DNA from: an uncultured Bacillales bacterium
Lineage (GTDB): Bacteria > Bacillota_I > Bacilli_A > RFN20 > CAG-826
Assembly: GCA_937902735.1 (NCBI GenBank)
Contig: CALELS010000013.1
Span: 134,523-198,522, forward strand
Direction: 5' to 3'
DNA length: 64,000 bases
Shown: piece by piece, positions 1,624-44,016 of the stretch
Layout of the letters: each line of letters starts with the position of its first letter
Position numbering within the stretch: the stretch's first letter is position 1
Position numbers and translations under genes: made by a program
Notes under the pieces: model-generated
The model's database searches: none
What the model was told of the DNA's origin: nothing
What the model saw: the letters and a program-made list of their open reading frames with translations, nothing else

Positions 1624-2463
1624 ATGGCTGAAGACAGAAACCTATTTGGAATGCTTGATGACATTTCGGCTGGCCAAGCTGAGATTTTAAGTGAGATCAC
1701 TGGTGTAAAAACCCATGTTAGTGATACGGATTCTAAAATTGCTGAATTGGAGCAAGAGATTCAAAAGCTTAAAAATAAACCAGTTGCCGAACCAAGACCT
1801 GCAGTAAACGCTCCTCAAAGAAGTGAAAAAGAAATACTACAGACGTTTTTAAAGCAAGCAAAAAAGAGCTGGATGTGGTTTGGTAATAGTGCAGAATTCA
1901 AGAAGTGGAAGATACTCGCTATTATATCCTTATTAATTTTATTAATAGCAGGACTTGCGACAACCATTGTTTCATCTATTTGTTTTAAGCTTTATAGCAC
2001 GTTCACATTGTTTGAAAATGCTTGGATGATATTTGGCATCATCTACTTAGTTTATGCGGCTAAAACGCAGCGTATTTATGAAGTTAATGCGCTTGCTGCT
2101 AATTCATCGACTAAATATGAAAAAGACAATCTGGGAATGATGTTTGCTAGAAAAGAGAAGGTTGTTTTTAGAATTTTCAAATGGCTTGCCATCATTTCTG
2201 TTGTTTGCAACATCATCGCTATATGGGCGGGCATGGGCAAAACAAACCAAGTGTTCGCTACCATAATGGAAGTTCTCTTCTTAGGGGCTATTATATTTGC
2301 TTATTTCATGAATCTTAATTTGTTTGCTCAATATTCAATCATTTATGTCGAAGGACACAACTTAACCACGAAAGAAAGAGTAGTGCTTGTCCTTCCACCA
2401 GGAGCAAAGAGTTTAATGCCTGAAGAAGATTTTAAAAAGAAGATGCCGTTCTTCTACGAATAG
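1624..2463 (+). CDS. Membrane protein: N-terminal coiled coil, 4 predicted TM helices, conserved acidic/KKKMPFFYE tail; paralogous to the C-terminal two-thirds of 13973..15236
   Basis: ORF-track protein with hydrophobic segments LAIISLLILLIAGLATTIV, MIFGIIYLVYAA, LAIISVVCNIIAIWAG and VLFLGAIIFAYFM. It aligns with the 427-aa ORF from RIAALEAW... through KKKMPFLYDKY. Confidence 0.7.
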   Translation: MAEDRNLFGMLDDISAGQAEILSEITGVKTHVSDTDSKIAELEQEIQKLKNKPVAEPRPAVNAPQRSEKEILQTFLKQAKKSWMWFGNSAEFKKWKILAIISLLILLIAGLATTIVSSICFKLYSTFTLFENAWMIFGIIYLVYAAKTQRIYEVNALAANSSTKYEKDNLGMMFARKEKVVFRIFKWLAIISVVCNIIAIWAGMGKTNQVFATIMEVLFLGAIIFAYFMNLNLFAQYSIIYVEGHNLTTKERVVLVLPPGAKSLMPEEDFKKKMPFFYE

Positions 2464-2472
2464 GAGTTGCAT

Positions 2473-3621
2473 ATGTATTTATCTCATTTAAGAATAAAGA
2501 ATCACCCAATTCTCAAAGATTTTGAGTTAGATTTAGTAAATCCAAAAACAGGAAAGCCGTATGCGGTTGTTGCTTTTGTTGGCGAAAATGGTTGTGGCAA
2601 GACAACTCTTTTAAACGAAATCTTTGATTATGAAAATTCCAAATATTTTGTAGATAAAGAGAAAGAGCACCCATTCTCGATCGCTCCATATTGCTCTTTG
2701 TTTTTAAGGCAAAGCAGTCTTGCTAGAAATGCCATGAAAGAAATTGGCAAATTGATTGATGGAAAAGATAGGTATGCTGTTAATAGCCAAAGCGCAGCCA
2801 TTCAAGGAATGAAAACAACCAATCCCTTAGAAGACAAACAGCAAGGACTCAAATTACTAGAAATACTTGATGATGTTGAAATATATAAGCTCTTCAAAGA
2901 AGGAGTGATTAGTGAAGTGGCTTGCGGATCTGAAATATCAAAGTTAATCGATGGTAAAGAACGCGGCTATGACATATCTAATTATTCTTCTGGACAGCAA
3001 GAGATATTACTTAAATTAAAGGACCTGAATGAATTCTATGCAAATACCGACAGTGTGCTTTTGGATGAGCCTGAAACATCACTACATCCAAGATGGCAAT
3101 TGGAAATCGTTAACTTAATTAGATTGCTCTTAACTGATATTAATGGAGACACGCCTCAAATATTCTTAGCTACTCACTCAGAAAAAGTGCTTCAGTCTTT
3201 AATTGGTAAAGAAGATGCTTTGATTGTTAGACTTTTTAAGGAAAAAGGAACCATTAAGAACGAAACTATTAGTCAAATGCAGCTCTTGCTTAGAAAACCA
3301 ACCTTTGCTGAATTAGACTATGTCATTTTCAAAATAGATTCGTATGAATACTGTAATGAATTGTTTGATCTTCTAGAGTGGAGATATGGCGTTAGTGGCG
3401 ATAGGGGCGTTGATAGGAAAATACAAAAGAGCGAATTCTATAATGATGAAAAGCACCATAAAGAGTGGCTTAATGATAAGTTTAATGAAGTTACTTGCTA
3501 CACATTGCCTGTTTATGTTCGAAATTATTTTCACCACCCAAAAGATAAGATTGAGCCCACACCTGAAGAACTGCACGAAGCAATAGAACTACTTCGTAAT
3601 GTCGTTTTAAATTTAGAGTAA
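2473..3621 (+). CDS. ABC/SMC-type P-loop ATPase (AAA_21/AAA_15-like, OLD-N-terminal-like), no nuclease domain
   Basis: Walker A GENGCGKTT, ABC-signature-like YSSGQQE, Walker B VLLDEPETSLH and H-loop LATHS. An AGGAG RBS sits 6 nt before the ATG at 2473. The track's 2467 start is TTG. It begins 10 nt after the membrane-protein stop. Confidence 0.75.
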   Translation: MYLSHLRIKNHPILKDFELDLVNPKTGKPYAVVAFVGENGCGKTTLLNEIFDYENSKYFVDKEKEHPFSIAPYCSLFLRQSSLARNAMKEIGKLIDGKDRYAVNSQSAAIQGMKTTNPLEDKQQGLKLLEILDDVEIYKLFKEGVISEVACGSEISKLIDGKERGYDISNYSSGQQEILLKLKDLNEFYANTDSVLLDEPETSLHPRWQLEIVNLIRLLLTDINGDTPQIFLATHSEKVLQSLIGKEDALIVRLFKEKGTIKNETISQMQLLLRKPTFAELDYVIFKIDSYEYCNELFDLLEWRYGVSGDRGVDRKIQKSEFYNDEKHHKEWLNDKFNEVTCYTLPVYVRNYFHHPKDKIEPTPEELHEAIELLRNVVLNLE

Positions 3622-10273: not shown

Positions 10274-11584
10274 ATGTTTAATCAGGAATCTATCAATTTG
10301 TTCGTTAAAAAATTCAATATCTTTTTTAGAACAAAGATGGAGATAGTTATTAAAAGAGAACAAAAGAACTATGATTTGCTCAACACTTTTTTAACCATAT
10401 TCTCTCCAGATAAAATTCCGTCATTAGCTCTTGAAGATTATTGTTTTGCAAAAGGCAATAAGAACACTATGTGCTATTGGATTGATAACACGCTTAATGA
10501 TTTGGGAGACATACACATTAATGGCCAATGTGGCTTTCAGAAATTCGGTATTCAAAATATAAATGGTGAATACGTATTCAAGAGAAGCAATCAAACAAAT
10601 TGTAAATACGGTGATAATTCTGATGACGTTTATAAAACAATTAACTCAGAGCTAATAAAAGTCATTGCTGCAGCTATTGCGTTTAATGCCGACGAAATTG
10701 ACAAATCAATGCTTCCCCAAGTTTTTAAATCGAAACTTTCATATTTATATAACAAAGATCATTGGATGCCTATTTATGTCAATACCGATGTGGATAAGCT
10801 ATTAGATGTTTTTGAAATTCCATATTATCATTCTGAATCTTTGACAAAAAAGCGAGTCAAACTATATTACTTCTACTTAGAAGTGAAAAAGCAAATACCA
10901 TTTATTACTACATGGGAATTTATGAACTTTGTTTATTCTGTTGATGGATATAGAGATTATCTAAGGAATGGTAAACCTGTTAATCATTCAAGCGCAAACG
11001 CCGAAATACGAATGAGTGGCCCAGATGACTCTACGATCAATTCTCAGGACAGCGAAGAAGACGAATTAGATTTGAGCGATGAGGATTTGATTGAATTTGT
11101 AGGCACTTATACTAAAAACGGAACAATTGATAACGGAGTTACTGCTTCCAGAAAGAAAAGAAACACACCAAGAAAGACGGACTACCAAAGAAAGCAGAAG
11201 AATAATGAGCGAAAAGGAACGATTGGAGAAAAGCTTATTTACAATGATGAAGTAAGTAAAATTGCTAATCTGAATCTTAATTTAGAAGTTATTCATAATG
11301 CTGCAAACGATGATACTCTTGGTTATGACATCACTTCTTATGATGAGAAAGGTAAAAAAATCTTTATTGAAGTTAAAACAACTACGAGTGGCAGAATAGA
11401 TGGCTTTCATCTCTCTGTTAAGGAAGTTGAGAAAGCTATTGAATTAGGAGAAAGATTCAAATTGTACCGTGTTTATAATTTAAATGTAAAAAACAAAACA
11501 TACGACGTTGAAATCTTTAATGGTGTAGAACTATTTGAAACCTTCAAACTCAAAGAAACAAGCTTCATTGCTTTAATTAATTAG
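10274..11584 (+). CDS. Two-domain protein: unknown N-terminal domain + C-terminal DUF3883-type PD-(D/E)xK nuclease
   Basis: C-terminal LGYDITSYDEKGKKIFIEVKTTTSGRIDGFHLSVKEVEKA matches the DUF3883 pattern (GyDI...IEVKtt...f.lS.nE). Confidence 0.6.
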   Translation: MFNQESINLFVKKFNIFFRTKMEIVIKREQKNYDLLNTFLTIFSPDKIPSLALEDYCFAKGNKNTMCYWIDNTLNDLGDIHINGQCGFQKFGIQNINGEYVFKRSNQTNCKYGDNSDDVYKTINSELIKVIAAAIAFNADEIDKSMLPQVFKSKLSYLYNKDHWMPIYVNTDVDKLLDVFEIPYYHSESLTKKRVKLYYFYLEVKKQIPFITTWEFMNFVYSVDGYRDYLRNGKPVNHSSANAEIRMSGPDDSTINSQDSEEDELDLSDEDLIEFVGTYTKNGTIDNGVTASRKKRNTPRKTDYQRKQKNNERKGTIGEKLIYNDEVSKIANLNLNLEVIHNAANDDTLGYDITSYDEKGKKIFIEVKTTTSGRIDGFHLSVKEVEKAIELGERFKLYRVYNLNVKNKTYDVEIFNGVELFETFKLKETSFIALIN

Positions 11585-11586
11585 AT

Positions 11587-12555
11587 ATGTCTAAAAAATC
11601 AATTTACATAGTTGAAAACGAGATTCGTCCTGGCGATTATGTTTTCTTTTATAGTGGAGAAGTTCTTACCGTAACTAAATACGATAAAGACAGACATAGA
11701 ATCACATTTGAAGATGGCTCCGTTAGAGATCTCTATGTCATATATGATAACTATGTTTCAGATATACGTCATCCGGCTGAAAAAGTTACAAAAACAAAGT
11801 CAGATAAGAAATGCAGTTCAAAATCAAAAACTACGAAAGCCAAACCCGCAAAGAGAGAATCCAAGACGTTCTCCCTTTATGCGTTAGCAAGCGGGAAACC
11901 TGGAAAGAAATTCACAATCAAAGCATTTCTGCAAATAACTAAGAACGCTAAGAAAAAGCCAGGTGGAGCCAATACTGAAAAGACAATTAAGCTCGATGAC
12001 GGTTATGTTTATGAAGCTGATTCGCAGCAAGAAATATCGACGCTTAAAAAGTTGATTTCGCATGATGCTTTTAAAAGATTGAGGGGACAATGCATTAATA
12101 TCCCGTATAGATATGGTGGTAAGACCCATAATTACTATCCCGATTTTATCATTCTCACTCAGACCAACAAGATCATTATTATGGAAGTAAAAGAAATTGC
12201 CCAAATGAACACAAAGCAGAATATCAAAAAATATGATGCTCTTAAGAGATATTGTGAGAAGAATGGTTATTTATATATCATGTGCGATAAATCATTTAAA
12301 CCATATGAAAAACTTAGTAAGTTCACTGCAAGTAGTCGAGTGGAAACTGCAATCGATGATGCTCTTGACGAAAAAGGATGTTTTGATTATTCAGATTTTA
12401 AAGAATTGATAAAAGGCAAAGACCATAAAAAGATAAAAGGCATCAGAAACTCGATCGGTATTTATATCAAATCACACAAAAAAGTCAAAATGATTGGCGA
12501 TTTAACATTCAATAGTTCAGATTTCCGTATTATTAGAATCAAGAAGAAGAAATAG
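11587..12555 (+). CDS. PD-(D/E)xK-fold nuclease-like protein with small N-terminal beta-rich domain and K-rich linker
   Basis: YYPDFIILTQTNKIIIMEVKE (PD...EVK). Begins 2 nt after the upstream stop. Confidence 0.5.
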   Translation: MSKKSIYIVENEIRPGDYVFFYSGEVLTVTKYDKDRHRITFEDGSVRDLYVIYDNYVSDIRHPAEKVTKTKSDKKCSSKSKTTKAKPAKRESKTFSLYALASGKPGKKFTIKAFLQITKNAKKKPGGANTEKTIKLDDGYVYEADSQQEISTLKKLISHDAFKRLRGQCINIPYRYGGKTHNYYPDFIILTQTNKIIIMEVKEIAQMNTKQNIKKYDALKRYCEKNGYLYIMCDKSFKPYEKLSKFTASSRVETAIDDALDEKGCFDYSDFKELIKGKDHKKIKGIRNSIGIYIKSHKKVKMIGDLTFNSSDFRIIRIKKKK

Positions 12556-12684
12556 GGGCAAAACGCTCCTTTTTTTACATTCTTATATGCAAATACGTAT
12601 TATGAACCCTGGTCAAACCCATGAGTGGTCAACTACTACACTGGGATTTTAAAGTAATATTATATATAATATTAAAATTGCATA

Positions 12685-12760
12685 AAAACATATTCCCTGA
12701 TACACCGGTTGCCTATGATATATAGTGCGTAATTAAACCCCATGTCAGGGAATATGTTTT
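12685..12760. repeat. Perfect 16-bp inverted repeat AAAACATATTCCCTGA / TCAGGGAATATGTTTT flanking a 44-bp spacer (MITE-like or large operator); third arm copy at 37329..37342
   Basis: Read directly from the sequence at 12685-12700 and 12745-12760; TCAGGGAATATGTT recurs at 37329. Confidence 0.6.
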
Positions 12761-12798
12761 ATTGTCCAATTATGCCTTCGTTATATTTTTTACGCCAT

Positions 12799-12904: not shown

Positions 12905-13981
12905 ATGGATTTCGCTAAAAGGATGGAAATAGCCAAAAGGCAAGAAGAGAGGCATAGAGCTCTTTTAGAAAAAAGAGAACGCTTTACCGATGCCGAAGAA
13001 AAATATAGACAGTTCTTTTTAGATATAGATAAAAATGAAGCTCATCTTTTTGGCGATTTGCCAGAAAGAAAGACTGAATCAACTCGTCGCATTATAGAGC
13101 TTCTTCTTAAGAATCCTGAAGAATATAAAAGAAAAACAGCTGAGATTCATGCCAAATACCCCAAACTAACATCTAGTGAATTCACAGAAGCATTGAAAAC
13201 AATGTGGAAGTATCAATACGAATACTATAAAGAGCTGGTTGATTATTTAAATATGACCAACGAAGATTATGAGACTCTTTTCTCACCAGAATATAAAAAG
13301 AAAACATTCGAAATGGCCAAAAATGGGCTTTTCCTGTTTTATGAAGAAACTCCTGACATGGAAGAGTTCTTGACTGATGACACAGACAAAAATATAGAAT
13401 TTGTTTTGAATTATATCTCAATGGATGATTTTGGTCCGTTGAGACAGATGCTCATGTATTTGTATACAGAAGAAGATCCTTCAGACTTTTTAAGAACTGT
13501 TAAAACTAGAGATTTTAAAGAAGCGATTGCTTGCTTGATAAATGGTTGCTATGGATCTTGCGCTAGAACAATGCTTGCCTTGATTGAAAACGAACACACT
13601 AATGCCTCAAATATCAATAGAGATTTCTTTGAAGATAAAATTACTAAAGGCGCGGATAGAGCTATTGAAATATCCAAACAACTTGGTGAGATTCATGTTT
13701 CTTATTTCGCGGAATGTTGGAAATTAATGAATGATTATTATCAAGAAATAACGGCAAATAGCGCAAAAAAATCAACTAGATATATAAACAGAAATGAAGT
13801 TGTGCATGGTGTTTATTGGGATGCTATTTTGCCTGACAAAAAGGCGTGTACAGAACTAGTTTTGTTTTACGTCAGTTTTAAAGCGATGTCGTTTTTGCTC
13901 CAAGAAGTTTATGATATGAGAGCAAGAGTTAATGAGGAATTTGATTTAGTGATTGCAAAGGAGTTATCAGAACGTGCTTGA
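12905..13981 (+). CDS. Alpha-helical protein with a candidate HEPN-type Rx4H motif (RNEVVHG)
   Basis: RYINRNEVVHGVYWD lies near the C-terminus. The track start at 12848 sits almost at the predicted TSS, so the ATG at 12905 is preferred. The HEPN assignment rests on the motif only. Confidence 0.4.
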   Translation: MDFAKRMEIAKRQEERHRALLEKRERFTDAEEKYRQFFLDIDKNEAHLFGDLPERKTESTRRIIELLLKNPEEYKRKTAEIHAKYPKLTSSEFTEALKTMWKYQYEYYKELVDYLNMTNEDYETLFSPEYKKKTFEMAKNGLFLFYEETPDMEEFLTDDTDKNIEFVLNYISMDDFGPLRQMLMYLYTEEDPSDFLRTVKTRDFKEAIACLINGCYGSCARTMLALIENEHTNASNINRDFFEDKITKGADRAIEISKQLGEIHVSYFAECWKLMNDYYQEITANSAKKSTRYINRNEVVHGVYWDAILPDKKACTELVLFYVSFKAMSFLLQEVYDMRARVNEEFDLVIAKELSERA

Positions 13982-15236
13982 TTTCTTGAATTATTTAGGG
14001 AATAAGGTAGTTGGGCGTTATAAAACCGTTGAGTCAAACATTAGAAACCGCTCCAATTCTTTTTACGACTCCTTTCTTGATCTTTTAGAAGATACTGTTA
14101 AAGCCATTTTAATGAATGAAGATATTGGCTATGACGGCAGAACTTGTGGAGAGATATTAAGAGAACCAGATGTTAATAATTTCTTTAAACATAAAGCTAA
14201 TATAGATAAAGATCTTTATTCGAAAGTCGGAGACTATATCAAAAAGATAAACGAACACAAACACCATAATGAAAAATATGTCAATGTCGATACTGTCATT
14301 AACTATATGTCTACATATTATGGGTTTGTAACTCCTTATCTTATTTACAAAGGCATAGAAATAAAACCATTTAATGAGGCCTATTTTAGAGGCATTTATG
14401 GCGTTACTTTAGAAAGAAGCAAAGAACTTGACAATGTTTCTCAAAAAGTGGATGAGTTTGTTTCAACTACTAATGTAAAAATTGATGAGCATTCAACTAG
14501 AATTGCTGCACTTGAGGCTTGGTCACAAGAATTTAACAGAAGGCAAATGCAACCTCAACCACAGTCGAGTGTTAAACCGCCAGAGAAAAAGAGTGAAAAA
14601 GAGGTAATGCATTGGTTCTTTAGAACCTCAAAAAAGAGCTGGCGTTGGTTCGGAAATCAATTCGAGTTGAATAAAAGCAAATCACTAGCTATTTTTTCTC
14701 ATGTCTTGCTCTTGGTTCTTGGACTGTTAACAACTATTGTGACATCTATTTCTACAAAGATTTATACGACATTCACCCTATTCGAAAACATTTGGCTTAT
14801 CTTTGGAATCCTCTTGTTAGTTTATGCGGTTAAAGCAAAACTTACATACGAGAGCGGAGACTTAGCTAGAAATACCAATTATAAGTATAAACAAGACCAA
14901 TTTGGGTTATGGAATCCGGGAAAAGAGAAAGCTGTATTCAAAGTGTTTAGGTGGTTAGGAATAATAGCGGTAGTAGGGAACATTATCTATATTTGGGTTC
15001 AATCCAGTAATATAAGCTGGCTTGCAACGATATTAGAGGTGCTGTTCTTAGGCTCAATCATCTTCTCGTTCTTCATGAACGTTTCACTATTTGCGCAATA
15101 TACCATTATATATTTAGAAGGAAAAAATATGAGCGGAACCGAATATGTAAAACTTGTTTGGGACCCAATGATTAAACAATTCCTTGTGGAAGAAGAATAT
15201 AAGAAGAAAATGCCGTTCTTATATGACAAATATTAA
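13973..15236 (+). CDS. Membrane protein: unique ~180-aa N-terminal cytoplasmic domain + coiled coil + 4-TM domain paralogous to ORF 1624..2463
   Basis: An AAAGGAG RBS lies 9 nt before the GTG at 13973, overlapping the upstream stop (the track uses TTG at 13953). C-terminal homology includes SWRWFGNQFE, TFTLFENIW, VLFLGSIIFSFFMN and EEEYKKKMPFLYDKY. Confidence 0.65.
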
Positions 15237-15333: not shown

Positions 15334-15552
15334 ATGAAGTTTATGATGCAAGATTCTATGTCGGCTCGCGCTGGCAAAAATCTTAAACGCATTATCAAGG
15401 AAAAAGGCTTCACTCAGGAACAATTTGCTGAGCAAATGTATGTAGATCCAACAACTGTTCGCAGATGGTTGGCACACGGGATCAAGGATATTGATACCAT
15501 CAGTACAATAGCCGAAATCTTCGATATAGACGTTATGGACATCCTTAAATAG
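15334..15552 (+). CDS. XRE-family HTH transcriptional regulator
   Basis: GFTQEQFAEQMYVDPTTVRRWLAHG is a classic HTH_3 pattern. Confidence 0.75.
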   Translation: MKFMMQDSMSARAGKNLKRIIKEKGFTQEQFAEQMYVDPTTVRRWLAHGIKDIDTISTIAEIFDIDVMDILK

Positions 15553-15588: not shown

Positions 15589-15655
15589 ATTTGTTGCGCT
15601 ATTTTGAGTGTTGACAATAATTCAGAATATTGGTGTCGAAAGGAAACAAACACTA

Positions 15656-16071
15656 TGACACCAAAAAACAAATACTTCAAAGTTACAGCCAAATGCGGAC
15701 ACGTTGGTAAAGGCAATTATGTCCCAGTGGCATTCGCTGTTAAAGCAGAAAGCAGAAGTGCTGCATCTCAAAAAGTTATGACTTATCACAGAGTCAAAAA
15801 ACAATTAAACGATGCAATCATCTCCTGCGAAGAAATTGATAGAGATTCTTATAAGGAACTCATGCAGGCGAACAAAGAATTCAAATATCTCCAATGCAAA
15901 TGCAATAGACAACAAAGAGAGATTGAAGGATTCGATTCACTCATCTGCAAAAACGAATACAGAGAAGAAAGACGCAAAGTCGAACCAGCCAAATCTATGA
16001 AATATAGAAGAGCAATCTATGAGTTGGGCGGCAGAAGAAGCTCTCTCTCACTCTGCTACGGGGAGGACTAA
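15656..16071 (+). CDS. Small Cys/His-containing protein (AKCGHVG...NY family), first gene of the nrd operon; truncated paralog at 40007..40294
   Basis: AAAGGAAAC RBS. ~85% DNA identity to 40160..40294 (reverse strand) over the first ~130 nt. 4-nt gap to nrdG. Confidence 0.55.
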
Positions 16072-16074
16072 ATC

Positions 16075-16515
16075 ATGAAGATCTATATCAATTCTATTCA
16101 ATTTAACAAGAGCCTTGTTGATGGTCCAGGAGTGAGAACATTAGTTTTCTTCCAAGGCTGTGACATTCATTGTCCAGGATGTCAAAATCCATCTTCTTGG
16201 GATATTACAAAAGGAACTGAATATTCTGTCAAAAACCTATCAAAAATCATAAAAGATGGCACTTTTAACGGGAAAATCACACTTACTGGTGGTGAGCCAC
16301 TTATGCAAAAAGAAGCGTTAGTGGAGCTATTAAAAGAGCTCAAAGGTTTAGATGTCATAGTTTATACAGGACATCAAAAAGAAGACGTTCCAAATGAAGT
16401 ATGGAAACTCACTTCTTATGTCAAATGTGGTCCTTTCATTGAGCGACTTAAAACTACAATCAAGCCTTATGTGGGATCTAGTAATCAAGAATTAATTAAA
16501 TCGGAGGGCAAATAA
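16075..16515 (+). CDS. nrdG: Anaerobic ribonucleoside-triphosphate reductase activating protein (radical SAM)
   Basis: FFQGCDIHCPGCQNP (CxxxCxxC) at the N-terminus; size ~146 aa; directly upstream of nrdD. Confidence 0.85.
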   Translation: MKIYINSIQFNKSLVDGPGVRTLVFFQGCDIHCPGCQNPSSWDITKGTEYSVKNLSKIIKDGTFNGKITLTGGEPLMQKEALVELLKELKGLDVIVYTGHQKEDVPNEVWKLTSYVKCGPFIERLKTTIKPYVGSSNQELIKSEGK

Positions 16516-16517
16516 AT

Positions 16518-18224
16518 ATGAAACAAAACACTAATGAAAATGCAGCAAATAGAACCAGTTATGTTGGTCATGTCTATACGGTTGGTGAAAGAGCTTATAA
16601 ACAAGAAATACTTAACTCTCTTCCTGCTGAATGGAAAGATTTGCACACAAAAGGTTATATCCACATCCATGACTTAGATGCTTATGGATTAACTTATAAC
16701 TGTTTAACTTTTAATCTAGTTCCTAACTTTCCTTATGAAAGATTTAAAGATTTCTCTGAGCAAAGAAAGATAGTCAGATTATTTGATTTCCTTAAAGAGT
16801 TGTTTACCAAGATGGGAAATGAGCAATCTGGTGGTATGGCTTTTGCTAATTTTGATAATGAAATGGCAGAAGTTATTACCAAGCTCGGAATCACAATCAA
16901 TGATGTCAATCTTTCTTTAATCAAAGATGCTATCGGAGAGCTTATTCTCTGGTGCAACGACAACCATACTAGAATGGGTCAAACCAGCTACTATGTTACT
17001 TTTAACATCGGCTTAGCGGATAGTGACTTAGCTAGATCTATAGCTTCGTTCCTCCTTGATGAATTTTACACAGCTGGTGACCTTATCTATAAACCAAACA
17101 TTGTCTTTAAAGTCCATGCTGGTCATAACCGCTTCGCCGATGATCCTAATCATTATCTTCTTAAAAAAGCTTTACTATGTACTGCTAAGAAGATGATTCC
17201 TACCTACCTTCTTTGCGATAGTGCTCCAGATAAAAACTATGATCCATATCGCTTAGCTGTTATGGGTTGCCGCACAAGAGTTGTAACTGACGTCTATGGC
17301 TGTGAAGGCTCTATTGGAAGAGGCAATATTGATAACATTTCCATTAATCTTCCTAGACTTGCTTTAGAGATAGTCGAGAAATGGCCAAATATCGATGTGG
17401 ATGAAAGAGTCCGCAAATTTAAAAAGAGATGGAATGAAGTAGCAACTGTTACTAAAGACATCCTTTTGGATAGATATTACAAAACCTGCAAAAGACAAGC
17501 TGATGATTTTCCAACCAATTCCGAATATAAACTTTGGTGCAAAGATTTCACAACAGTTGACTCTTTAGAAGAGGTCTTTAAACACGGCACATTATCGCTT
17601 GGTTTTATTGGATTAAGTGAGGCTGTCGAAGTTTTAACTGGTGCTAAATATTACTCAAGCGCAGATAACTACGTTGTTGCATTGGGAATTGTCAAACACA
17701 TGAGAGATTTCTGTGATTTCTTAAGATATGACTACAATCTTAATTTCTCTTTGCTTGCTACTAGCGGTGAACTCATTTCAGGAAGATTTATCGATATTGA
17801 TAAAGAAATCTTCAAACCAGAAGTAGATATTTTCGCTAAAGGTTACTATACCAACTCGTTCCATATTGATGTAGATAGCGGACTTCCTGCTTACAAAAAG
17901 ATTCAAATGGAAGGATTATTTCATGAACTCTGCAATGGTGGATGCATCACGTATGTAGAGCTAGGTGAAGCTCCTTTAGGAAATTATGAAGGTCTACTTG
18001 AATATGTTGAAGTTGCCATCAAAGCAGGTACCCATTATTTAGGCTTTAATTTCCCAAAGGACATCTGTGATGAATGTGGCACAAGTGGTGTTTTTGACGA
18101 ATGCCCAGTTTGTCATAGCAAGCGCATCACTAGAATCAGAAGAGTATCTGGATATCTCGAGATATTAGATGGTTTTACCAAAGGCAAAAAGGCAGAAGAG
18201 AAAAACAGGAGGAAGAATGGATGA
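16518..18224 (+). CDS. nrdD: Anaerobic (class III) ribonucleoside-triphosphate reductase, compact phage-like form
   Basis: C-terminal zinc ribbon CDECG...CPVCH followed by the glycyl-radical motif RRVSGYLE. Confidence 0.9.
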   Translation: MKQNTNENAANRTSYVGHVYTVGERAYKQEILNSLPAEWKDLHTKGYIHIHDLDAYGLTYNCLTFNLVPNFPYERFKDFSEQRKIVRLFDFLKELFTKMGNEQSGGMAFANFDNEMAEVITKLGITINDVNLSLIKDAIGELILWCNDNHTRMGQTSYYVTFNIGLADSDLARSIASFLLDEFYTAGDLIYKPNIVFKVHAGHNRFADDPNHYLLKKALLCTAKKMIPTYLLCDSAPDKNYDPYRLAVMGCRTRVVTDVYGCEGSIGRGNIDNISINLPRLALEIVEKWPNIDVDERVRKFKKRWNEVATVTKDILLDRYYKTCKRQADDFPTNSEYKLWCKDFTTVDSLEEVFKHGTLSLGFIGLSEAVEVLTGAKYYSSADNYVVALGIVKHMRDFCDFLRYDYNLNFSLLATSGELISGRFIDIDKEIFKPEVDIFAKGYYTNSFHIDVDSGLPAYKKIQMEGLFHELCNGGCITYVELGEAPLGNYEGLLEYVEVAIKAGTHYLGFNFPKDICDECGTSGVFDECPVCHSKRITRIRRVSGYLEILDGFTKGKKAEEKNRRKNG

Positions 18225-18787
18225 TTTATTACATAGCAGATACACACTTTAGAGATCAGTCCATTTTTGATAAATGTAAGAGACCTTTTAAGTCAATCCT
18301 AGATATGGATGAGACCATTATTAACAATTGGAATAATAGAGTTAAGGATGACGACGTTATCTATGTTTTAGGTGACTTAGTTAGAGATGATGATGTTTCG
18401 GCTATTCAAATCTTTAATAGATTAAAAGGCCATAAGCACTTAATCGTTGGAAACCATGACCACCAATTATTAGACGTCATCAAAAGCTCTAACTTGTTTG
18501 AATCAATCAAGTTCATAGATTTGGTTATCGATAACAATCGCAAAGTCTGTGTTTGCCATTATCCATTAATGGATTGGATGGAATTCAATAGACAAGGCAT
18601 TCTAGTTTACGGTCATATCCATAATAAAACTGCAAAGAATGGCGATGCCTATAAACAAATAAAAGAGTTTTATAAAACATTACCTGCATATAACTGTGGT
18701 GTCGACGTATGCGATTTTGAACCAAAGACATTAGATGAGCTTATTCGTTTAAAGGAGGAAAACAAAGATGAACCATATATCAATTGA
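18221..18787 (+). CDS. Calcineurin-like metallophosphoesterase
   Basis: IADTHF, GDLVRDDD, GNHDHQ and GHIHN motifs. Confidence 0.75.
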   Translation: MIYYIADTHFRDQSIFDKCKRPFKSILDMDETIINNWNNRVKDDDVIYVLGDLVRDDDVSAIQIFNRLKGHKHLIVGNHDHQLLDVIKSSNLFESIKFIDLVIDNNRKVCVCHYPLMDWMEFNRQGILVYGHIHNKTAKNGDAYKQIKEFYKTLPAYNCGVDVCDFEPKTLDELIRLKEENKDEPYIN

Positions 18788-19346
18788 AGGCATGGATGGT
18801 GTTGGAAAGAGCACTGTCTGTCAACTTTTAGCAGAAAAGACTGGTTATACTTTTGTAACTAAGCCGCTTCATTATTTAACCGATTCCGATGATAGCAAAG
18901 ACTGGCCTAACTATTTCAGAGCCAGAGATATAGCTAACAATAGTGAAAATCGAGACTTTTCCGCATGGTTTTATGGCCTAGGCTTAATCTACAGCTACGA
19001 AAGATTCAAAAATCAAAACATCATCACGGATAGACATATCGTATCCAATTATTGTTGGAGTGGTGTTCCATCTAATATGGACATCTTTGATTTGCTTATT
19101 AAGAAACTTGGTGCGCCAACACTAACAGTGATTCTATATGCAAATGAAGATACAGTTCGTAGCAGACTCTTGAAAAGAGATCTAACAGATAGTGATTTAA
19201 AACGCGTTGATAAGACTGAAAAAGTCTATGAGAGAATGATAAGCTTCTGCGAGCTAAAACATTTCCCATACATCGTTATAGATACTTCAAAACTTAACCC
19301 AGAACAAATAGTGGACATCGTTCTTAAAAAGATGGAGGTGCTTTAA
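18768..19346 (+). CDS. P-loop nucleotide/nucleoside kinase (thymidylate-kinase/dNK-like)
   Basis: IEGMDGVGKSTV P-loop of the TMPK/dNK family. Confidence 0.65.
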   Translation: MNHISIEGMDGVGKSTVCQLLAEKTGYTFVTKPLHYLTDSDDSKDWPNYFRARDIANNSENRDFSAWFYGLGLIYSYERFKNQNIITDRHIVSNYCWSGVPSNMDIFDLLIKKLGAPTLTVILYANEDTVRSRLLKRDLTDSDLKRVDKTEKVYERMISFCELKHFPYIVIDTSKLNPEQIVDIVLKKMEVL

Positions 19347-21799
19347 TGAACTATAAATACTCAGAAGACATGAAATATTTAGCTCTTTATTGGGCTCTTA
19401 GATTTGTTGAAACAGAAGAAGACATAATGGTCAAAGAATATAAAGGCGGTTATAAAATAACCATTGATGCAGAGCACCAGTATGTTGATTTTGGCAATCG
19501 TATAACTATGATTGGCGACAAGACATTATCTTTAACCGACCATAAATCGTTTGTTGTCCTCGAATGTGTAGATAAACTTCTATCAATGGGTTACCTTCCA
19601 TCAGAGATCATCATAGATCTTCAAAATGAGTTCGATATTTATGCAAACAATTTATATATCAAATGCTTTGAATGGGGTCATATGGATGATAGCAATATCA
19701 CTCCAAAACCAGGTACATTTCTTTCGATTAAATATGAATCTAGATTAATCAGTGGAATCATTGAAAGAAAAACCGAAATCCGTGATGGATATGATACTTT
19801 CGAATATGGCATCTTTGATTTGAAAAAGAAACAACCCGTGTATCAATTAAGACATAAGAACTCCATCAAAACGGATAATAAAGACTTTGTTATCGAAGAT
19901 GATGTTTTCGTTAAATATAACGGTAATGATAAAAAAGTAGTCATACCAGAAGGCATTAAAGCTGTTGGGCCATGTGCGTTTTGGGATAATCAATCAATAG
20001 AAGAAGTGGTGCTTCCTAATTCGCTTATTAGCTTAGGCGGAGACACTTTCTATAATTGCAGAAATCTTAAAAAAGTAGTCATTCCATCTAAGGTAGAGAA
20101 AATTGCTAACAATCCTTTTGCTGGATGTCCTTTACTATCTTTAGAGAACCATTCAAAAAACTTTAAATTAGTGGATGATGTGCTCTTCGATAAAAAGAAA
20201 ACGATCCTTATCTATTACTCAATTTCTAAAAAGAATGAGAAATATAAAATCCCCTATGGTGTATCCATCGTTGGTAAGCATAGTTTCTTTATGGCGGATA
20301 ATCTTAAAGAAGTTATTATTCCATCAACAGTTAGAAAACTTGAAAACAATCCATTTTCTGGCTGTAGCAAACTAGAAGTCATTAATAAGTCTTCCTATAT
20401 TAATATTATTAATAAGGTTATATATAATCGCTTTAAATCAAGTGTCCTTGGTTGCATCAATTCAATTGAAGCAGATGAGCTTGTTTTAGAGCCAGTTAAA
20501 AGCATTGGTAGAAACTCCTTTTGGAATTGCAAAGGCATTAAGAAGATTGTTTTACCTGCTACATTGAAGCAGATTGGTTATAACCCTTTTGTTGGCTGCT
20601 CCAACATTCATTTTGAAAGCCATAGCGACGAGTATGTTGTTGATAATGACATCTTATTTGATAAGAACAAAAACAAAATAGTGTGCTATCCAGCTTGGAA
20701 AGCGGTCGGAGATGTTTATATTCCTGAATCAGTAATTGCTCTTGAAAGAGGCGCTTTTTCAGGATGCAATAGAATGACAGGCATCAACCTCCATAATGTA
20801 AACGTTATTAGCAAATCATGTTTTACAAACTGCTTATCTCTAGAAAGCATTTATTGTAGTGACTTAATCAAATACATTGGCGAATGGGCATTTGCTTATT
20901 GCACGGCGCTTAAGAACATTTCCATTTCACCTAAAACAAAAGTCGACAACAACGCTTTCTCTAATTGCAATCCATTAATTGAGATTAGAAATAATCTAAA
21001 TAACTATGTTATTGAATCTGATAACTTATTCACTTTAATGAGTATGACCGCTAATTATAGTGGAAGGATTGATTCGATTGTTATTGACCCACCATATAAC
21101 TCAAATATCGATTATATCGGCTATAAAGATTCCAATTACGATAATGGTTACATTTCTTTTATGAGGGAAAGACTAATTATTGCTTATCAGCTTTTAAGTA
21201 ATAAAGGTTTCTTGATTATCAACATAGATGATGGCGAGTTCAACAGCTTAACAACTCTATGCAAAGAGATTTTTGGTGATGATCTCGTTTCAACGCATAA
21301 ATGGAAGAAAAAGCATCCATTCTTCGATGCCAACAGGGTTGTATTGAATCCAAATAAAGTTCAAACAGATTTTGAGAACATCATTATTTGTAGAAAAACA
21401 GCTGAAGCAACCCTACATTCAATTTATCAACCTTACATTGATAATGGTGTTTTGAAAGAAAAGGAAACTAATGTACCAGATGTTTTTGATTGCTTTGGAA
21501 CAACGTCTTCTGCAAAAGATGAAATCTGCGAGTTATTTGGTACACGCGAGTATTTCTCAACACCTAAGCCGGTTAAGTTGATTAAAGAATTTGTTAGAGC
21601 AACCACTAATAAGGACTCAATTGTTGCTGATTTCTTCGCCGGTAGTGGAACTCTTGGACACGCAGTTTATGACTTAAACAAAGAAGATGGCGGCAACAGA
21701 CATTTCGTTTTAATTTCAAATAATGAATCTGATATTTGCCGCAAAGTAACTAAAAAGAGAATGGAACTGATTGGTTCAGCGTTCCAATTTCTTGGTTAG
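19346..21799 (+). CDS. Fusion protein: N-terminal domain + ~6 BspA-type leucine-rich repeats + C-terminal beta-class N6A/N4C DNA methyltransferase (PF01555-like)
   Basis: Repeats of the form VVIPEGIKAVGPCAFWDNQSIEEVVLPNSL...FYNCRNLKKVVIP. MTase motifs are IVIDPPYNS (IV), FSTPKPVKLIKEFV and DFFAGSGTLGHA (I), in beta-class order. Confidence 0.8.
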   Translation: MNYKYSEDMKYLALYWALRFVETEEDIMVKEYKGGYKITIDAEHQYVDFGNRITMIGDKTLSLTDHKSFVVLECVDKLLSMGYLPSEIIIDLQNEFDIYANNLYIKCFEWGHMDDSNITPKPGTFLSIKYESRLISGIIERKTEIRDGYDTFEYGIFDLKKKQPVYQLRHKNSIKTDNKDFVIEDDVFVKYNGNDKKVVIPEGIKAVGPCAFWDNQSIEEVVLPNSLISLGGDTFYNCRNLKKVVIPSKVEKIANNPFAGCPLLSLENHSKNFKLVDDVLFDKKKTILIYYSISKKNEKYKIPYGVSIVGKHSFFMADNLKEVIIPSTVRKLENNPFSGCSKLEVINKSSYINIINKVIYNRFKSSVLGCINSIEADELVLEPVKSIGRNSFWNCKGIKKIVLPATLKQIGYNPFVGCSNIHFESHSDEYVVDNDILFDKNKNKIVCYPAWKAVGDVYIPESVIALERGAFSGCNRMTGINLHNVNVISKSCFTNCLSLESIYCSDLIKYIGEWAFAYCTALKNISISPKTKVDNNAFSNCNPLIEIRNNLNNYVIESDNLFTLMSMTANYSGRIDSIVIDPPYNSNIDYIGYKDSNYDNGYISFMRERLIIAYQLLSNKGFLIINIDDGEFNSLTTLCKEIFGDDLVSTHKWKKKHPFFDANRVVLNPNKVQTDFENIIICRKTAEATLHSIYQPYIDNGVLKEKETNVPDVFDCFGTTSSAKDEICELFGTREYFSTPKPVKLIKEFVRATTNKDSIVADFFAGSGTLGHAVYDLNKEDGGNRHFVLISNNESDICRKVTKKRMELIGSAFQFLG

Positions 21800-25025: not shown

Positions 25026-27224
25026 ATGAAGTTTTACAAATCCAATGTGTTGGGTATGCCTAGTAATACTAGATATCCTCACGAATTCGAAGCAAAACAA
25101 ACGACAAACAAAGAACAAATACGACAAATATTTAATAAGGACTATGTATGCGCTACATACAAGTATGACAAAAGGGACTGTGCTAACTTTCTAGTTTCAG
25201 ATTGTTTGGCTCTAGATTGTGACAACGACCATAGTGATGATCCAAATGCTTGGATTACTCCTGAGAACCTCATCAGTGAATTTGATAATGTGTTCATGAT
25301 CTTCCATATGTCTAGAAACAACATGAAAGAAAAAGATGGCAAAGCACCTAGACCTAAGTTTCATGTCTTTATGTCGATGGAACCAATTAAGAATCCAGAA
25401 GCATACGCGGAATTAAAAAGAAAAATTAATACCATATGGCCTTATTTTGACAAAAATGCAGAAGATGCTGCTCGTTTCTTCTTTGGCACTGAAGAACCTG
25501 AAGTTATTGTCTCTCCTGGTAAATTAACCATAAACGCTTATATCGACGCTTATGAAAAATTCGCCAATATGGACGATGATAATCAAGTCATTAAGTGTGG
25601 AGAAAGAAACTCAAAGTTATCTAAGTACGCTGCGATTATCTTAAAAAGATATGGCGATACTGAAGAAACCAGACAACTCTTCGAGGACAAAAATGAAAAA
25701 TGCTGTGAAGAACCACTTGAAGATTCTGAATTAAACCTCATTTGGAATAGTGCTCTTAAATTCTATAAAACAAAGATACTCACTAATCCGAATTATGTGA
25801 AACCAGATGAGTATGGTGGCGAATCCTATGTACCAAGTGACATGTCTGATGTTGGACAAGCATTAAAGTTTAGTGAGCATTATGGCTCTATTATCGCTTA
25901 TAACCCTGCGATGAAGTTTGTGGTCTATGACCAAAATAGATGGGTTGAAAGTGAAGAGCTTGCTCTAGCGGTCTTACATCAATTCACTAATAAACAAATC
26001 ATGGAAGCTTTTAAGCTCTATAGAGAAGCTAGTGATAGTGGTGATAAAGAAAGAATTGATAAGGCGAAAGCATATCTAAAATTTGTAACTAGCCGCAGAA
26101 ACTCTAACTATATCAACGCGACATTAAAACAAGCTACTCCTTATATAGGTGTTGATACTGAGAAATTCGATGCAGATCCGTTTCTCTTATCTACTCCTGA
26201 AGGTGTTTATGATTTAAGGATTGGTCCTTTTAGGCCAAAGCCACATAAACCAGAAGACTATATCACCAAAATGACTGCATGTTCCCCTTCTTTTAAAGGT
26301 AAGGACATCTGGGAGGAATCTTTAAATAAGATATTCTCAAACAATAAGGAATTAATTAGATACGTACAGCAGTGCTGTGGCTTAGCGGCAGTAGGAGCGG
26401 TATATGTTGAAATGATGCTTATTGCTCACGGTGAAGGCGGTAATGGTAAATCAACATTCTGGAACACCATCTTAAAAGTGTTCGGTGACTATGGTGGGAC
26501 TCTTAACAGTGACAATCTATTCGTAAATAACGGTAAATCATCTAGATTTGAAAAAGCGTTCCTAAAAGGAAAAAGACTAATCATTTCTAGCGAAAACGAA
26601 CAGGGAGCAAGGCTTAATGATGGAATGATCAAACAGCTATGTTCCACTGATAGAATCAAAGGTGAAAAGAAGTTCAAAGATGAGTTTGACTTTACTCCTT
26701 CTCATACAATGATTCTTTACACCAACCATTTGCCTAAAGTCACCACTGGTGATGATGGCACATGGCGTAGACTAAAAGTTATTCCGTTTACTAATAAGTT
26801 CACAGGCAATAACGACATTAAGAACTATTCCGAGTATCTATTTGAAAACTGTAAGGAATATATTCTATTTTGGGTCATGGAGGGTGCGAAAATTGTCATA
26901 GACAATAAATTCCACATCGAAGAGCCAAACGTCGTTCTAGAAGCTTGTAAACGATATAAGAATGAGAATGACTGGTTACATCAATTCATCAATGAGTGCT
27001 GTAAGCTCGGCGAAGATGAAAAAGTCAGCTCTGGAGAGCTTTATCTAAAGTATAGAGATTATGCTTGGCATAGAAATGAATATGTTCGTCCAAGTAATGA
27101 TTTCAAAGCAGCGATGGAGCTTGCTGGATTTAAAACGACTCATCCTCATAACAAAGTTATCTATCATGGCATCCGATTACTTACTGATAATGAATTGGGT
27201 GTCGAGGATGACTTTCTAAGTTAA
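25026..27224 (+). CDS. Phage/plasmid primase-helicase (P4/D5 family, SF3 NTPase C-terminal domain)
   Basis: LIAHGEGGNGKSTFWNTI Walker A, typical of P4-family primase C-terminal domains; 732 aa. Confidence 0.8.
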   Translation: MKFYKSNVLGMPSNTRYPHEFEAKQTTNKEQIRQIFNKDYVCATYKYDKRDCANFLVSDCLALDCDNDHSDDPNAWITPENLISEFDNVFMIFHMSRNNMKEKDGKAPRPKFHVFMSMEPIKNPEAYAELKRKINTIWPYFDKNAEDAARFFFGTEEPEVIVSPGKLTINAYIDAYEKFANMDDDNQVIKCGERNSKLSKYAAIILKRYGDTEETRQLFEDKNEKCCEEPLEDSELNLIWNSALKFYKTKILTNPNYVKPDEYGGESYVPSDMSDVGQALKFSEHYGSIIAYNPAMKFVVYDQNRWVESEELALAVLHQFTNKQIMEAFKLYREASDSGDKERIDKAKAYLKFVTSRRNSNYINATLKQATPYIGVDTEKFDADPFLLSTPEGVYDLRIGPFRPKPHKPEDYITKMTACSPSFKGKDIWEESLNKIFSNNKELIRYVQQCCGLAAVGAVYVEMMLIAHGEGGNGKSTFWNTILKVFGDYGGTLNSDNLFVNNGKSSRFEKAFLKGKRLIISSENEQGARLNDGMIKQLCSTDRIKGEKKFKDEFDFTPSHTMILYTNHLPKVTTGDDGTWRRLKVIPFTNKFTGNNDIKNYSEYLFENCKEYILFWVMEGAKIVIDNKFHIEEPNVVLEACKRYKNENDWLHQFINECCKLGEDEKVSSGELYLKYRDYAWHRNEYVRPSNDFKAAMELAGFKTTHPHNKVIYHGIRLLTDNELGVEDDFLS

Positions 27225-32889: not shown

Positions 32890-32898
32890 GGAGATTTT

Positions 32899-33630
32899 AT
32901 GGAAAAAGAATTGAAGTGCCCTATTTGTGGACAACCGACCAGAATCTATATGGGAAACGCTCGTAAAGATTTGCTTTGCGCAAAGCATGCAGAAGCTTTA
33001 AAAGCTGGCAAGATTGAAATAAATGATAAAGGTCTATTCATTGATAAAGAAACCGGCAAAGTTTTAAACATGGACTACATTGAACCCAAAAAAGAAGAAA
33101 AGAAGCAAGAGGGCGTAGTTAAATGCATTGCCTGTGGCAAAGAAACTAAACCAGGATTCTTATTCTGCGGTGGTTGCTATAAGAAATATGCAGATAAGAA
33201 ATTGCTTGTAGAAATAACAAATTGCCGCGACATAACAATTCTCGATGATTCATACGAAGGCAAATTTACATGTACTGACGGCCATATTGTTAAATCCAAA
33301 TCAGAAATGATTATCGATAACTGGCTATTTGACCACAACATTGCTCATGCTTATGAAAAGAAACTTCCAATTGATGCGGATGAAAATCATGATTTGCATC
33401 CAGATTTTTGCCTGCCAGGTTATGGAGACGACCCAGATGACATTTATGTAGAATACTGGGGATATAACGAAAGCAATATTAAATATACTGAATCAAAAAA
33501 TTACAAAATGAAAATATATAAGCAGTTAAAAGTAACTGTTATTTGTTTACAAGAAAAAGACATCATGGATATCAATGCCTCTTTAAGTAGAAAACTTAAG
33601 TTTTATAAAAAAGGCACCATTAACGAATAA
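32899..33630 (+). CDS. Two Zn-ribbons (CPICG...C, CIACG...CGGC) + C-terminal nuclease-like domain with PDF...EYWG motif
   Basis: IIDNWLFDHNIAHAYEKK...HPDFCLP...IYVEYWGYNE aligns with residues ~430-520 of the downstream helicase (IANWYFINGIDYIYEAPYEK...MPDFRLP...IYHEHYGINK). Confidence 0.55.
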   Translation: MEKELKCPICGQPTRIYMGNARKDLLCAKHAEALKAGKIEINDKGLFIDKETGKVLNMDYIEPKKEEKKQEGVVKCIACGKETKPGFLFCGGCYKKYADKKLLVEITNCRDITILDDSYEGKFTCTDGHIVKSKSEMIIDNWLFDHNIAHAYEKKLPIDADENHDLHPDFCLPGYGDDPDDIYVEYWGYNESNIKYTESKNYKMKIYKQLKVTVICLQEKDIMDINASLSRKLKFYKKGTINE

Positions 33631-33635
33631 TTCGC

Positions 33636-36629: not shown

Positions 36630-36793
36630 GCAAAAATGCTGACAAACTGTTAAAACGAAGAAAATAGAAAAAAATTTAATATCAACTAACTCTTTGAGTT
36701 AAAAAATATTAATAAAATTTGTTTGGAAAAAAATAGAAAAAGTCCCCTACGGAAATACTTTGTATTTCCTTATATATAATAGGAGGACTATTT

Positions 36794-37204: not shown

Positions 37205-37457
37205 AAGTATTAGGTGGCGTAAATTGCCACTTTTCTTTTAACCACCATCGTGATATGATTTTAAGGTCAAAAATGCCACTTTTATATAATACTTTGTATT
37301 ATATAAGTCCAAGGTCTTGCACCCTGTATCAGGGAATATGTTAGAAGTTTATTGCATTGCAATACTTTTTTAAAAATGCAGATTATTTTGTAATAAAAAT
37401 AAGCACATATTGATAACGTGCACAAAAAATGATAAAATTTGGGCACGAGGTAAATAT

Positions 37458-43320: not shown

Positions 43321-43355
43321 GACTAATCACCTCGACATTATTATAGCATAATCAA

Positions 43356-43968: not shown

Positions 43969-44016
43969 TTTGTTTCCTTTTGTCGGAAATGATTTTTCTT
44001 TCTTTTTCTTCATATT

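Follow-up and report, generated by a model that had tools for sequence, protein, structure and literature searches.

The stretch of DNA analysed here, 64,000 nucleotides (nt) of an uncultured Bacillales bacterium (GenBank assembly GCA_937902735.1, contig CALELS010000013.1, positions 134,523 to 198,522; hereafter the window), contains two overlapping genes, designated open reading frames (ORFs) A and B (Table 1). ORF A encodes a helical protein whose C-terminal domain carries a conserved R-N-x3-H-G motif, and ORF B encodes a protein with a soluble N-terminal domain, a coiled coil and a module of four transmembrane segments (4-TM). The reading that we favour, with moderate confidence, is that A is a HEPN-like protein and that A and B are separable modules of the abortive-infection type, a ribonuclease (RNase) and a membrane effector, which are stacked in one operon and do not form an obligate pair. 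A would thus act on RNA, B would act at the membrane, and both would serve in defence.

The start of A was placed at ATG 12905 and not at the upstream ATG 12848, as its homologues are 355–359 amino acids (aa) long and as only the last ~25 nt upstream of this start are conserved in the related loci L002, L005, and L006 (loci are designated by L numbers throughout). For B, the in-frame start is GTG 13974. A preliminary description of this DNA had correctly recognized that the downstream gene overlaps the stop codon of A and is preceded by the ribosome-binding site AAAGGAG, but had placed its start codon at 13973, in a frame that contains 42 stop codons. The identical 8-nt overlap is kept in L002, L005, and L006; it reads ATGCTTGA in L002, where B starts with ATG at that position. 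The A–B unit is separated from the upstream TnsA-like gene by a terminator-like hairpin, and a terminator scan detected no terminator-like site between A and B. The promoter-like site in front of A counts for little, because such sites are no more numerous in this region than in shuffled sequences. A and B are paired in four diverged loci (the window, L002, L005, and L006) and in the near-identical strain variants L072 and L073. Judged from sequence, co-transcription of A and B is supported, and so is the translational coupling that had been proposed before.

Table 1. Positions of ORFs A and B, their predicted parts and adjoining features in the window
Feature	Position	Strand	Remarks
ORF A	12905..13981	+	358 aa; cytoplasmic, predicted to be all-helical; family without annotation
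HEPN-like helical bundle at the C-terminus of A	13460..13978	+	Residues 186–358; AF2 model
E228-N-E-H-T232	13586..13600	+	Family E-x3-[K/R] position on helix 2; column counts of 39-sequence alignment
RNEVVHG	13790-13810	+	A residues 296–302
R296-N-E-V-V-H301-G302-V-Y304	13790..13816	+	Predicted catalytic Rx4H motif
Shine-Dalgarno sequence AAAGGAG for B	13957-13963	+	Within the 3' end of A, 10 nt before GTG 13974
A/B overlap GTGCTTGA	13974..13981	+	8 nt; GTG start of B and TGA stop of A (13979-81)
ORF B	13974..15236	+	420 aa; N-domain, coiled coil and 4-TM module
N-domain of B (BN)	13974..14423	+	Residues 1–150; alignment A3
Coiled-coil/low-complexity linker of B	14424..14648	+	Residues 151–225; seam between two ancestral genes
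4-TM module of B	14649..15233	+	Hydropathy; alignment A5
Transmembrane segments of B	~14679-14747, 14763-14846, 14934-14999, 15009-15098	+	Hydropathy
Terminator-like hairpin	12554..12570	+	Ends the upstream TnsA-like gene; pattern scan, consensus match only
Promoter-like site TTTACA-18-TATTAT	12574..12603	+	Upstream of A; 10/12, consensus match only
Xre-type helix-turn-helix (HTH) gene	15334..15552	+	Downstream of B; Pfam HTH_3
Terminator-like hairpins	15537-15589		After the Xre-type HTH gene; terminator scan
Coiled-coil + 4-TM paralogue of B	1624..2463	+	279 aa; 49% identity to B residues 152–418, E 3e-75
PtuA/AriA-like ABC ATPase	2467..3621		PADLOC PtuA E 1e-24; Pfam AAA_15/AAA_21

Neither A nor B gave a match above noise with Pfam, NCBIfam, PADLOC, or PHROG families. 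When clustered at 90% identity, the A family comprises 21 clusters; at 50% identity, 64 of 1.84 billion representatives belong to it, and a Pfam domain is assigned to none of them. No member was found in GTDB representative genomes, IMG/VR, or 50,697 phage records, and the JGI metagenomes yielded only the strain variants L072 and L073; the family appears to be confined to gut metagenomes. Taken by itself, the motif is not telling: shuffling of A yields the bare pattern R.{4,6}H in 68% of cases, and A itself has it three times, while RN...H is present in 1.7% of the shuffles and in five of the 66 ORFs of the window that are 100 aa or longer. Since the bare motif does not go beyond chance, the weight rests on its conservation among relatives. 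In an alignment of 41 A sequences that reaches down to 17% identity, R296, H301, G302, and Y304 are among the nearly invariant positions, and in the alignment of the C-terminal domains of 39 family members (18–65% identical to A) R296, H301, and G302 are the sole invariant columns. The latter alignment gives the family signature R-[N/H]-x3-H-G-x-Y, with N (31 sequences) or H (eight) at position 297 and Y (37) or F (two) at position 304. Upstream of the motif, position 228 is acidic (E/D) in 38 of the 39 sequences and position 232 is K or R in 23. The hallmarks of HEPN domains are Rx4-6H, a polar residue (N, D, or H) after the arginine and an upstream acidic residue that typically lies within Ex3[KR] (Anantharaman et al. 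2013, PMC3710099); the A family shows the motif with spacing x4, the polar residue and the upstream acidic residue.

As the preliminary description had stated, A is alpha-helical: AlphaFold2 (AF2) predicts an all-helical protein. The model of full-length A (predicted local distance difference test, pLDDT, 77) has low confidence around the motif and retrieved nothing but spurious long-helix matches from the PDB (e.g., ABC exporters and spectrin), and the C-terminal domain was therefore refolded separately. With the 39-sequence alignment as input, residues 186–358 gave a model with a pLDDT of 94.6 and a predicted template modelling score of 0.87, in which a short helix between the core helices H81-97 and H127-172 (domain numbering) carries the motif. 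When this model was compared with the PDB using Foldseek, 18 of the top 50 matches were HEPN structures, among them AbiV (9bj5-7), HepT (6m6w, 6m6u, 5yep, and 8xeh), 2q00, 1ufb, 1wol, the sacsin domain 3o10, and AF_0298 (2hsb). The best fit was obtained with 2hsb (template modelling score, TM-score, 0.52/0.68; root-mean-square deviation, rmsd, 4.5 Å; probability 0.80), and the three top target-normalised TM-scores all belong to HEPN structures (0.68 for 2hsb, 0.54 for 3o10, and 0.54 for 1wol). Matches outside HEPN (CorA, OspC, and RIFIN) have rmsd values above 12 Å. The top match in BFVD is an uncharacterised siphovirus protein (probability 0.98, TM-score 0.53), and rank 13 is held by a DUF4209 protein. 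DUF4209 is a HEPN family (PMC3710099), and it was also the sole family to be hit, weakly, by more than one member when 41 A-family proteins were scanned individually against Pfam (sub-threshold; DUF4209 with E 0.06 in two of 41, HEPN_MAE_28990 with E 0.017 in one of 41). The families that had been named as likely relatives, Abi_2, AbiU2, Swt1, and RloC, did not turn up: window A gave no match to any of them in hmmscan at E ≤10, and they are absent from the 25 families most often matched, out of 61, across the 41 members.

The invariant R, H, and G, together with best fold matches that are HEPN-like, indicate that A probably represents a new HEPN family, and that it probably works as other members of the superfamily do. 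The preliminary description had made this assignment dependent on conservation of the motif and on similarity to HEPN folds. The motif is conserved in all 39 sequences. The similarity to HEPN folds, based on the C-domain model, which has solved HEPN domains as its best matches, is real, but its statistical support is weak.

B is a composite protein. Its N-domain BN is joined to a 4-TM module that has a paralogue in the window (1624..2463), as had been noted before, and the linker between the two is the least conserved part of B. Alignment A3 of BN has R15, T18, N28, F30, D32, L35, L37, E39, G59, K84, K91, N93, K96, H97, and E100 as invariant positions. A per-member scan of 32 BN domains gave no consistent Pfam match, no PDB profile matched, and hhalign found BN to be unrelated to the C-domain of A. 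A precomputed flag for PF14355 on the homologue P0130, which would have made BN an Abi_C/HEPN domain, was not reproduced by hmmscan at E ≤1. Residues 84–101 of BN (window 14223..14276) contain the invariant string K91-x-N93-x-H95-K96-H97-x-x-E100-K, which in sequence resembles a HEPN-type motif with lysine in place of arginine. The hydrophobic segments of B lie at about residues 236–258, 264–291, 321–342, and 346–375, and the 4-TM module is marked by the conserved motifs KKSWRWFG and Y-x-x-F-T-x-F-E-N (alignment A5). A PDB profile search with alignment A5 gave no significant match; the N-terminus of stand-alone 4-TM proteins matched coiled-coil peptides only.

The 114 homologues of B fall into 39 fused proteins, 39 that consist of the coiled-coil and 4-TM half only, and 36 that consist of BN with a coiled-coil tail only. 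In 51 loci from GTDB species genomes, mostly of uncultured gut Bacilli, Mollicutes-like and Clostridia lineages, a BN gene is immediately followed by a gene for a membrane protein, typically with a start-stop junction of -1 or -11 nt. This membrane protein usually belongs to the 4-TM family; in some loci it is a different multi-TM protein whose N-terminal helical head is similar. By these sequence comparisons, B is a Rosetta-stone fusion of a two-gene module, BN plus coiled coil and coiled coil plus 4-TM, and the existence of fused and split forms implies that the BN and 4-TM proteins interact. The module is widespread in gut Firmicutes and is found in at least one temperate phage. The 4-TM module is found with cytoplasmic partners of at least two kinds and can be replaced by other multi-TM proteins in BN loci, as would be expected of a swappable effector. 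The paralogue at 1624..2463 is a case in point, as no BN gene precedes it and it ends 4 nt upstream of a PtuA/AriA-like ATPase, with which it may form a separate pair of membrane effector and Septu/PARIS-type ATPase (1624..3621).

Clustering of all ORFs of the fetched loci revealed the recurrent array DUF4238 – BN – membrane gene – (HTH) – ~140-aa gene – nrdG – nrdD – (metallophosphatase) – nucleoside/nucleotide kinase – leucine-rich repeat (LRR)/methyltransferase. DUF4238 (confirmed in five loci with 45–125 bits) adjoins BN in 36 loci, mostly with an overlap of 8–17 nt or a gap of less than 40 nt, and lies downstream of the module in three of these (L024, L040, and L050). At the same nrdDG-proximal site, the DUF4238 gene of L062 precedes a B protein that is 75% identical to that of the window. 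In the lineage of the window, the slot usually held by DUF4238 is occupied by A, directly upstream of B and with the same 8-nt overlap. A and DUF4238 share this position without being homologous: hhalign of alignments A2 or A4 against an alignment of 33 DUF4238 sequences gave a probability of 0.1-0.2%, and a search for a shared C-terminus that could represent a recombination seam found none. DUF4238 alone is an experimentally established anti-T7 gene from a P2 hotspot in E. coli ('Rst_DUF4238'; Rousset et al. 2022, PMC9122126).

Both genes also occur apart. A-family genes of 20–50% identity are present without a B-type gene in four other defence islands (L001, L063, L066, and L067), B-type modules without A are present in more than 50 loci, and about 15 loci with BN and a TM gene have neither A nor DUF4238. 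The N-domain of B is 84.0% identical to that of the window where it stands beside DUF4238 and 84.7% identical where it stands beside A, so that the swap left no co-adaptive trace. The occurrence of A without B, that of BN-TM without A or DUF4238 and the equal identity of B next to either neighbour favour separable modules over an obligate pair. The dedicated pair of RNase toxin and membrane protein that the preliminary description had proposed is thus not borne out.

Several points weigh against our reading. The tight 8-nt overlap in every A–B locus could equally mean joint function. Synteny with nrdDG is shared by 31 of ~55 loci, and shared ancestry inflates the signal of linkage between DUF4238, BN, and the TM gene. 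No recognisable fold or family could be assigned to BN, for which a role as a sensor is a guess. As to the HEPN assignment, window A has T232 in place of K/R at the Ex3[KR] position; no single structural match is significant, with all PDB Foldseek E-values above 0.5 and best E-values of 0.2-1.4 over the PDB and BFVD searches; and no profile search ties A to any HEPN family, be it hmmscan, PDB profile searches with alignments A1, A2, and A4, none of which gave a significant match, or the homologue search with profile A4, which retrieved family fragments only and no Pfam-annotated remote relatives.

As the coupling is consistently tight, the idea that A and B are parts of a single machine stays alive. 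A would then signal to BN or be restrained by it, and BN would gate the 4-TM effector, in an obligate two-component system (effectively three-part with the fused B) whose first component may be either DUF4238 or A. This would explain why the 8-nt overlap is kept in the window, L002, L005, and L006 at protein identities as low as 65-81%, why DUF4238 is just as tightly coupled to BN in its 36 loci and stays linked even in the three with inverted order, why A sits exactly in the DUF4238 slot and why no terminator-like site intervenes between A and B. We consider it unlikely, although the likeliest of the alternatives, because A stands alone in four loci, because BN-TM does without A and DUF4238 in ~15 loci and in phage NatCom_17901, because DUF4238 works alone in E. 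coli (PMC9122126) and because the N-domain of B, about 84% identical with either neighbour, shows no partner-specific co-divergence.

It is improbable that A is not an active HEPN RNase at all and instead a generic helical bundle or a catalytically dead scaffold, in which R, H, G, and Y would be kept for structure or ligand binding and A would be a regulator or adaptor. The lack of a significant structural or profile match fits this possibility, as do the many spurious fold matches that helical bundles yield, the frequency of a bare Rx4-6H by chance and the existence of inactive or non-RNase HEPN domains (PMC3710099). Against it stand an alignment of 39 sequences that has no invariant column other than the R, H, and G of R-[N/H]-x3-H-G, the fit to the definition of HEPN of the polar residue that follows R and of the acidic residue upstream, and the strong over-representation of HEPN domains among the best fold matches, where they also have the best TM-scores.

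If A and B are separable modules, their action can be pictured as follows. On infection A, probably as a dimer, would cleave RNA by means of H301 and R296 and would be a metal-independent RNase like other HEPN domains that keep Rx4-6H. H301 may be the general base, and R296/N297 and the upstream acidic residue may complete the site, probably across the dimer; the helical N-terminal region may be a regulatory or oligomerisation part. BN would be a cytoplasmic sensor or regulator and the 4-TM part, with a predicted N-in/C-in topology, a membrane-perturbing effector with pore-forming or depolarising action. Upon sensing of a signal by BN, the coiled coil would open or assemble the 4-TM part, and membrane integrity would collapse. 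Either event, cleavage of RNA by A or collapse of the membrane through B, would abort infection.

A more far-reaching proposal, which we put forward only tentatively and with low confidence, is that DUF4238 or A, a BN-coiled-coil protein and a coiled-coil multi-TM protein make up one modular defence system of gut Firmicutes and temperate phages, in which swappable cytoplasmic enzymes are coupled via a coiled-coil adaptor to swappable membrane effectors. If so, DUF4238, which until now has been described only as an anti-T7 gene acting on its own, would gain a natural partner set, and the exchange of A and DUF4238 would be a natural experiment in the replacement of a first component. In any case, the linkage of the module to a validated defence gene of unknown mechanism offers a concrete handle on DUF4238, and B is a clean Rosetta-stone case of fused and split forms. 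If A is an active HEPN RNase, it constitutes a new family that is undetected by Pfam, NCBIfam, PADLOC, and PHROGs and would be a gene for defence or a toxin that escapes standard defence-finding pipelines. No general principle is changed thereby; HEPN nucleases and membrane effectors both belong to the usual equipment of abortive-infection systems.

Comparison with described systems brings out likenesses and differences. With the HEPN superfamily as defined previously (PMC3710099), A shares the all-helical bundle (predicted in A), the invariant Rx4H with N or H after R, an acidic residue upstream whose context resembles Ex3[KR] and the location in defence islands. By the searches made here, the nearest to it are HEPN-T-type domains like AF_0298 (2hsb), the HEPN domain of sacsin (3o10), ST0689 (1wol), and the DUF4209/C6orf70 family. 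It differs from all described HEPN families in the extended signature R-N-x3-H-G-x-Y, which is its own, in an additional helix (around residues 249–263) inserted between helices 2 and 3, in a helical N-terminal region of ~185 residues without known counterpart, and in the lack of any link by hidden Markov model or profile. AbiV, a HEPN RNase from Lactococcus, is part of a toxin-antitoxin system of type III with an RNA antitoxin as its partner (bioRxiv 10.1101/2024.05.05.592566; PDB 9bj5-9bj7). Like A, it is a HEPN-type phage-defence protein encoded in a two-gene unit and its structures are among the fold matches of A, but the fit is poor (TM-score ~0.33, rmsd 11-12 Å). An AbiV-like RNA antitoxin was looked for beside A and rejected, as there is no tandem repeat, no Rfam match above noise and no upstream conservation beyond the ~25 nt shared with L002, L005, and L006; a non-repetitive antitoxin RNA may be present.

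In the type VII toxin-antitoxin system HEPN-MNT (HepT-MntA), the HEPN toxin carries a motif resembling Rx4H-x-Y, and HepT structures (6m6w, 5yep, and 8xeh) are among the fold matches of A. A differs in its size of 358 aa with a large N-terminal region and in having the tyrosine at H+3 and not at H+2. A nucleotidyltransferase gene does not adjoin A, the neighbours of which are the TnsA-like endonuclease gene and B. The likeness to DUF4238 is one of position only, as A takes the same coupled place upstream of B-type modules that DUF4238 has in sister loci such as L062. RexAB of phage lambda consists of the cytoplasmic sensor RexA and the 4-TM channel RexB and causes abortive infection by depolarisation. 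The resemblance of the A–B locus to it is confined to architecture, that is, a cytoplasmic component coupled to a small 4-TM protein, an association with mobile elements and a defence context. In contrast to RexAB, cytoplasmic domain and TM part form a fusion in B or are joined via coiled coils, and B has no match in Pfam, RexB included, at E ≤1 apart from noise. Septu- and PARIS-type systems (PtuA, AriA) are relevant for the paralogue at 1624..2463 and not for A–B: the paralogue adjoins an ATPase of this type that has no nuclease partner, and by analogy this suggests that the 4-TM protein may take the effector role held by HNH or TOPRIM nucleases in Septu and PARIS. In PADLOC-DB 2.0, no family matched A or B, the paralogue, the BN-only protein P0116, or any of three DUF4238 neighbours.

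A and B lie in a defence hotspot that varies from strain to strain, upstream of HTH-x138-nrdG-nrdD. The genes upstream of A vary between strains and species: in the window, a PD-T4-1-like NOV_C protein (PADLOC E 3e-29) lies two genes up, followed by the TnsA-like endonuclease (10274..12555), L002 has NERD in this place, L005 and L006 have AAA_14/DUF4143, and the strain variant L072 departs from the window upstream of 12619. Homologues of A elsewhere keep similar company. The one in L001 has AbiEii, an SRA-NUDIX-NOV_C protein, Gabija-like genes and Wadjet as neighbours, that in L066 lies beside an MNT-HEPN pair, which is a separate module, and that in L067 is surrounded by NUDIX, MrcB_N-NOV_C, MazG, and SLFN-type helicases. 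An HTH_3 gene like the one downstream of B also follows the A homologues in L063 and L066.

The window is rich in defence and mobile-element genes, including a D5-type primase-helicase, and has limited ties to a phage. The temperate Heliusvirales phage NatCom_17901 (PV036423.1) carries a BN gene beside a serine recombinase, and the segments 15604..21799 and 25026..27224 of the window are common to both at 38-67% protein identity; the shared genes are those for the ~140-aa protein, nrdG, nrdD, the kinase, LRR/methyltransferase and the D5-type primase-helicase. The same gene block is syntenic in more than 30 contigs of metagenome-assembled genomes whose assigned taxa differ greatly and include Bacteroides and Parasutterella, which hints at a mobile element or at mis-binned contigs. 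Least probable is that A and B serve such an element or a phage, and not the defence of the host, as part of an nrdDG-linked block, through superinfection exclusion, timing of lysis (with a holin-like 4-TM protein) or host takeover: the BN gene of NatCom_17901 and its 412-aa downstream gene lie upstream of the same x135-nrdG-nrdD-kinase block, which the window shares together with the primase-helicase, and the module stays beside nrdDG in 31 loci, but the window has no phage structural genes matching NatCom_17901, BN was found neither in IMG/VR, from which A is likewise absent, nor in plasmids, A is missing from the 50,697 phage records, the module is also present at sites apart from nrdDG, in the company of restriction and further defence genes (as in L060), and exclusion systems borne by prophages are themselves defence and overlap with the reading of A and B as abortive-infection modules.

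A number of further observations concern A and its relatives. The narrow profile A1 matched residues 110–177 of the Shedu protein SduA (chain 8ti8) with an E-value of 0.045, in an alignment that comprises A residues 139–204 (window 13319..13516) and the invariant G141, F143, F145, P150, D151, E153, and L156 of A. This stretch of SduA is the dimerising linker domain of Shedu (bioRxiv 10.1101/2023.08.10.552793); the borderline likeness was discarded, as it disappeared with the broader profile A2. L003 and L004 contain a copy of A (8001-9056, P0018) in which the last ~70 residues, RNxxxH included, are swapped for unrelated sequence and which is not followed by a B gene; this copy appears to have decayed or recombined. 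A protein of 180 aa encoded on a 214-kb contig (P0205) is a stand-alone form of the C-terminal domain of A and suggests that the HEPN-like domain occurs as a small protein of its own, too. Large proteins encoded beside distant A homologues bear RNxxxH motifs themselves, namely RNINAH and RNYLSHGY in a protein of 593 aa in L063 (2341-4122) and RNKNYH at the end of a protein of 570 aa in L064 (751-2463), so that A-family genes sit among other putative HEPN proteins.

NOV_C (DUF3883) proteins are encoded near A-family genes in three independent loci (window 10274..12555, L001 8441-9820, and L067 1285-2956), twice together with NUDIX, and this recurrence could be plain clustering in defence islands or a real association. 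Further downstream in the window, 28042..45333 is a dense run of defence-type genes that encode a Type ISP restriction-modification enzyme (1615 aa), a UvrD helicase with topoisomerase-type Zn ribbons, a Fic/SoFic-like protein, an AAA_14/DUF4143 ATPase, and a Schlafen AlbA_2 protein. Upstream of A, a palindrome of ~80 nt (12682..12762) scores in Rfam as a sub-threshold miRNA-like hairpin on both strands, and part of it was also picked up as a terminator-like stem on the minus strand.

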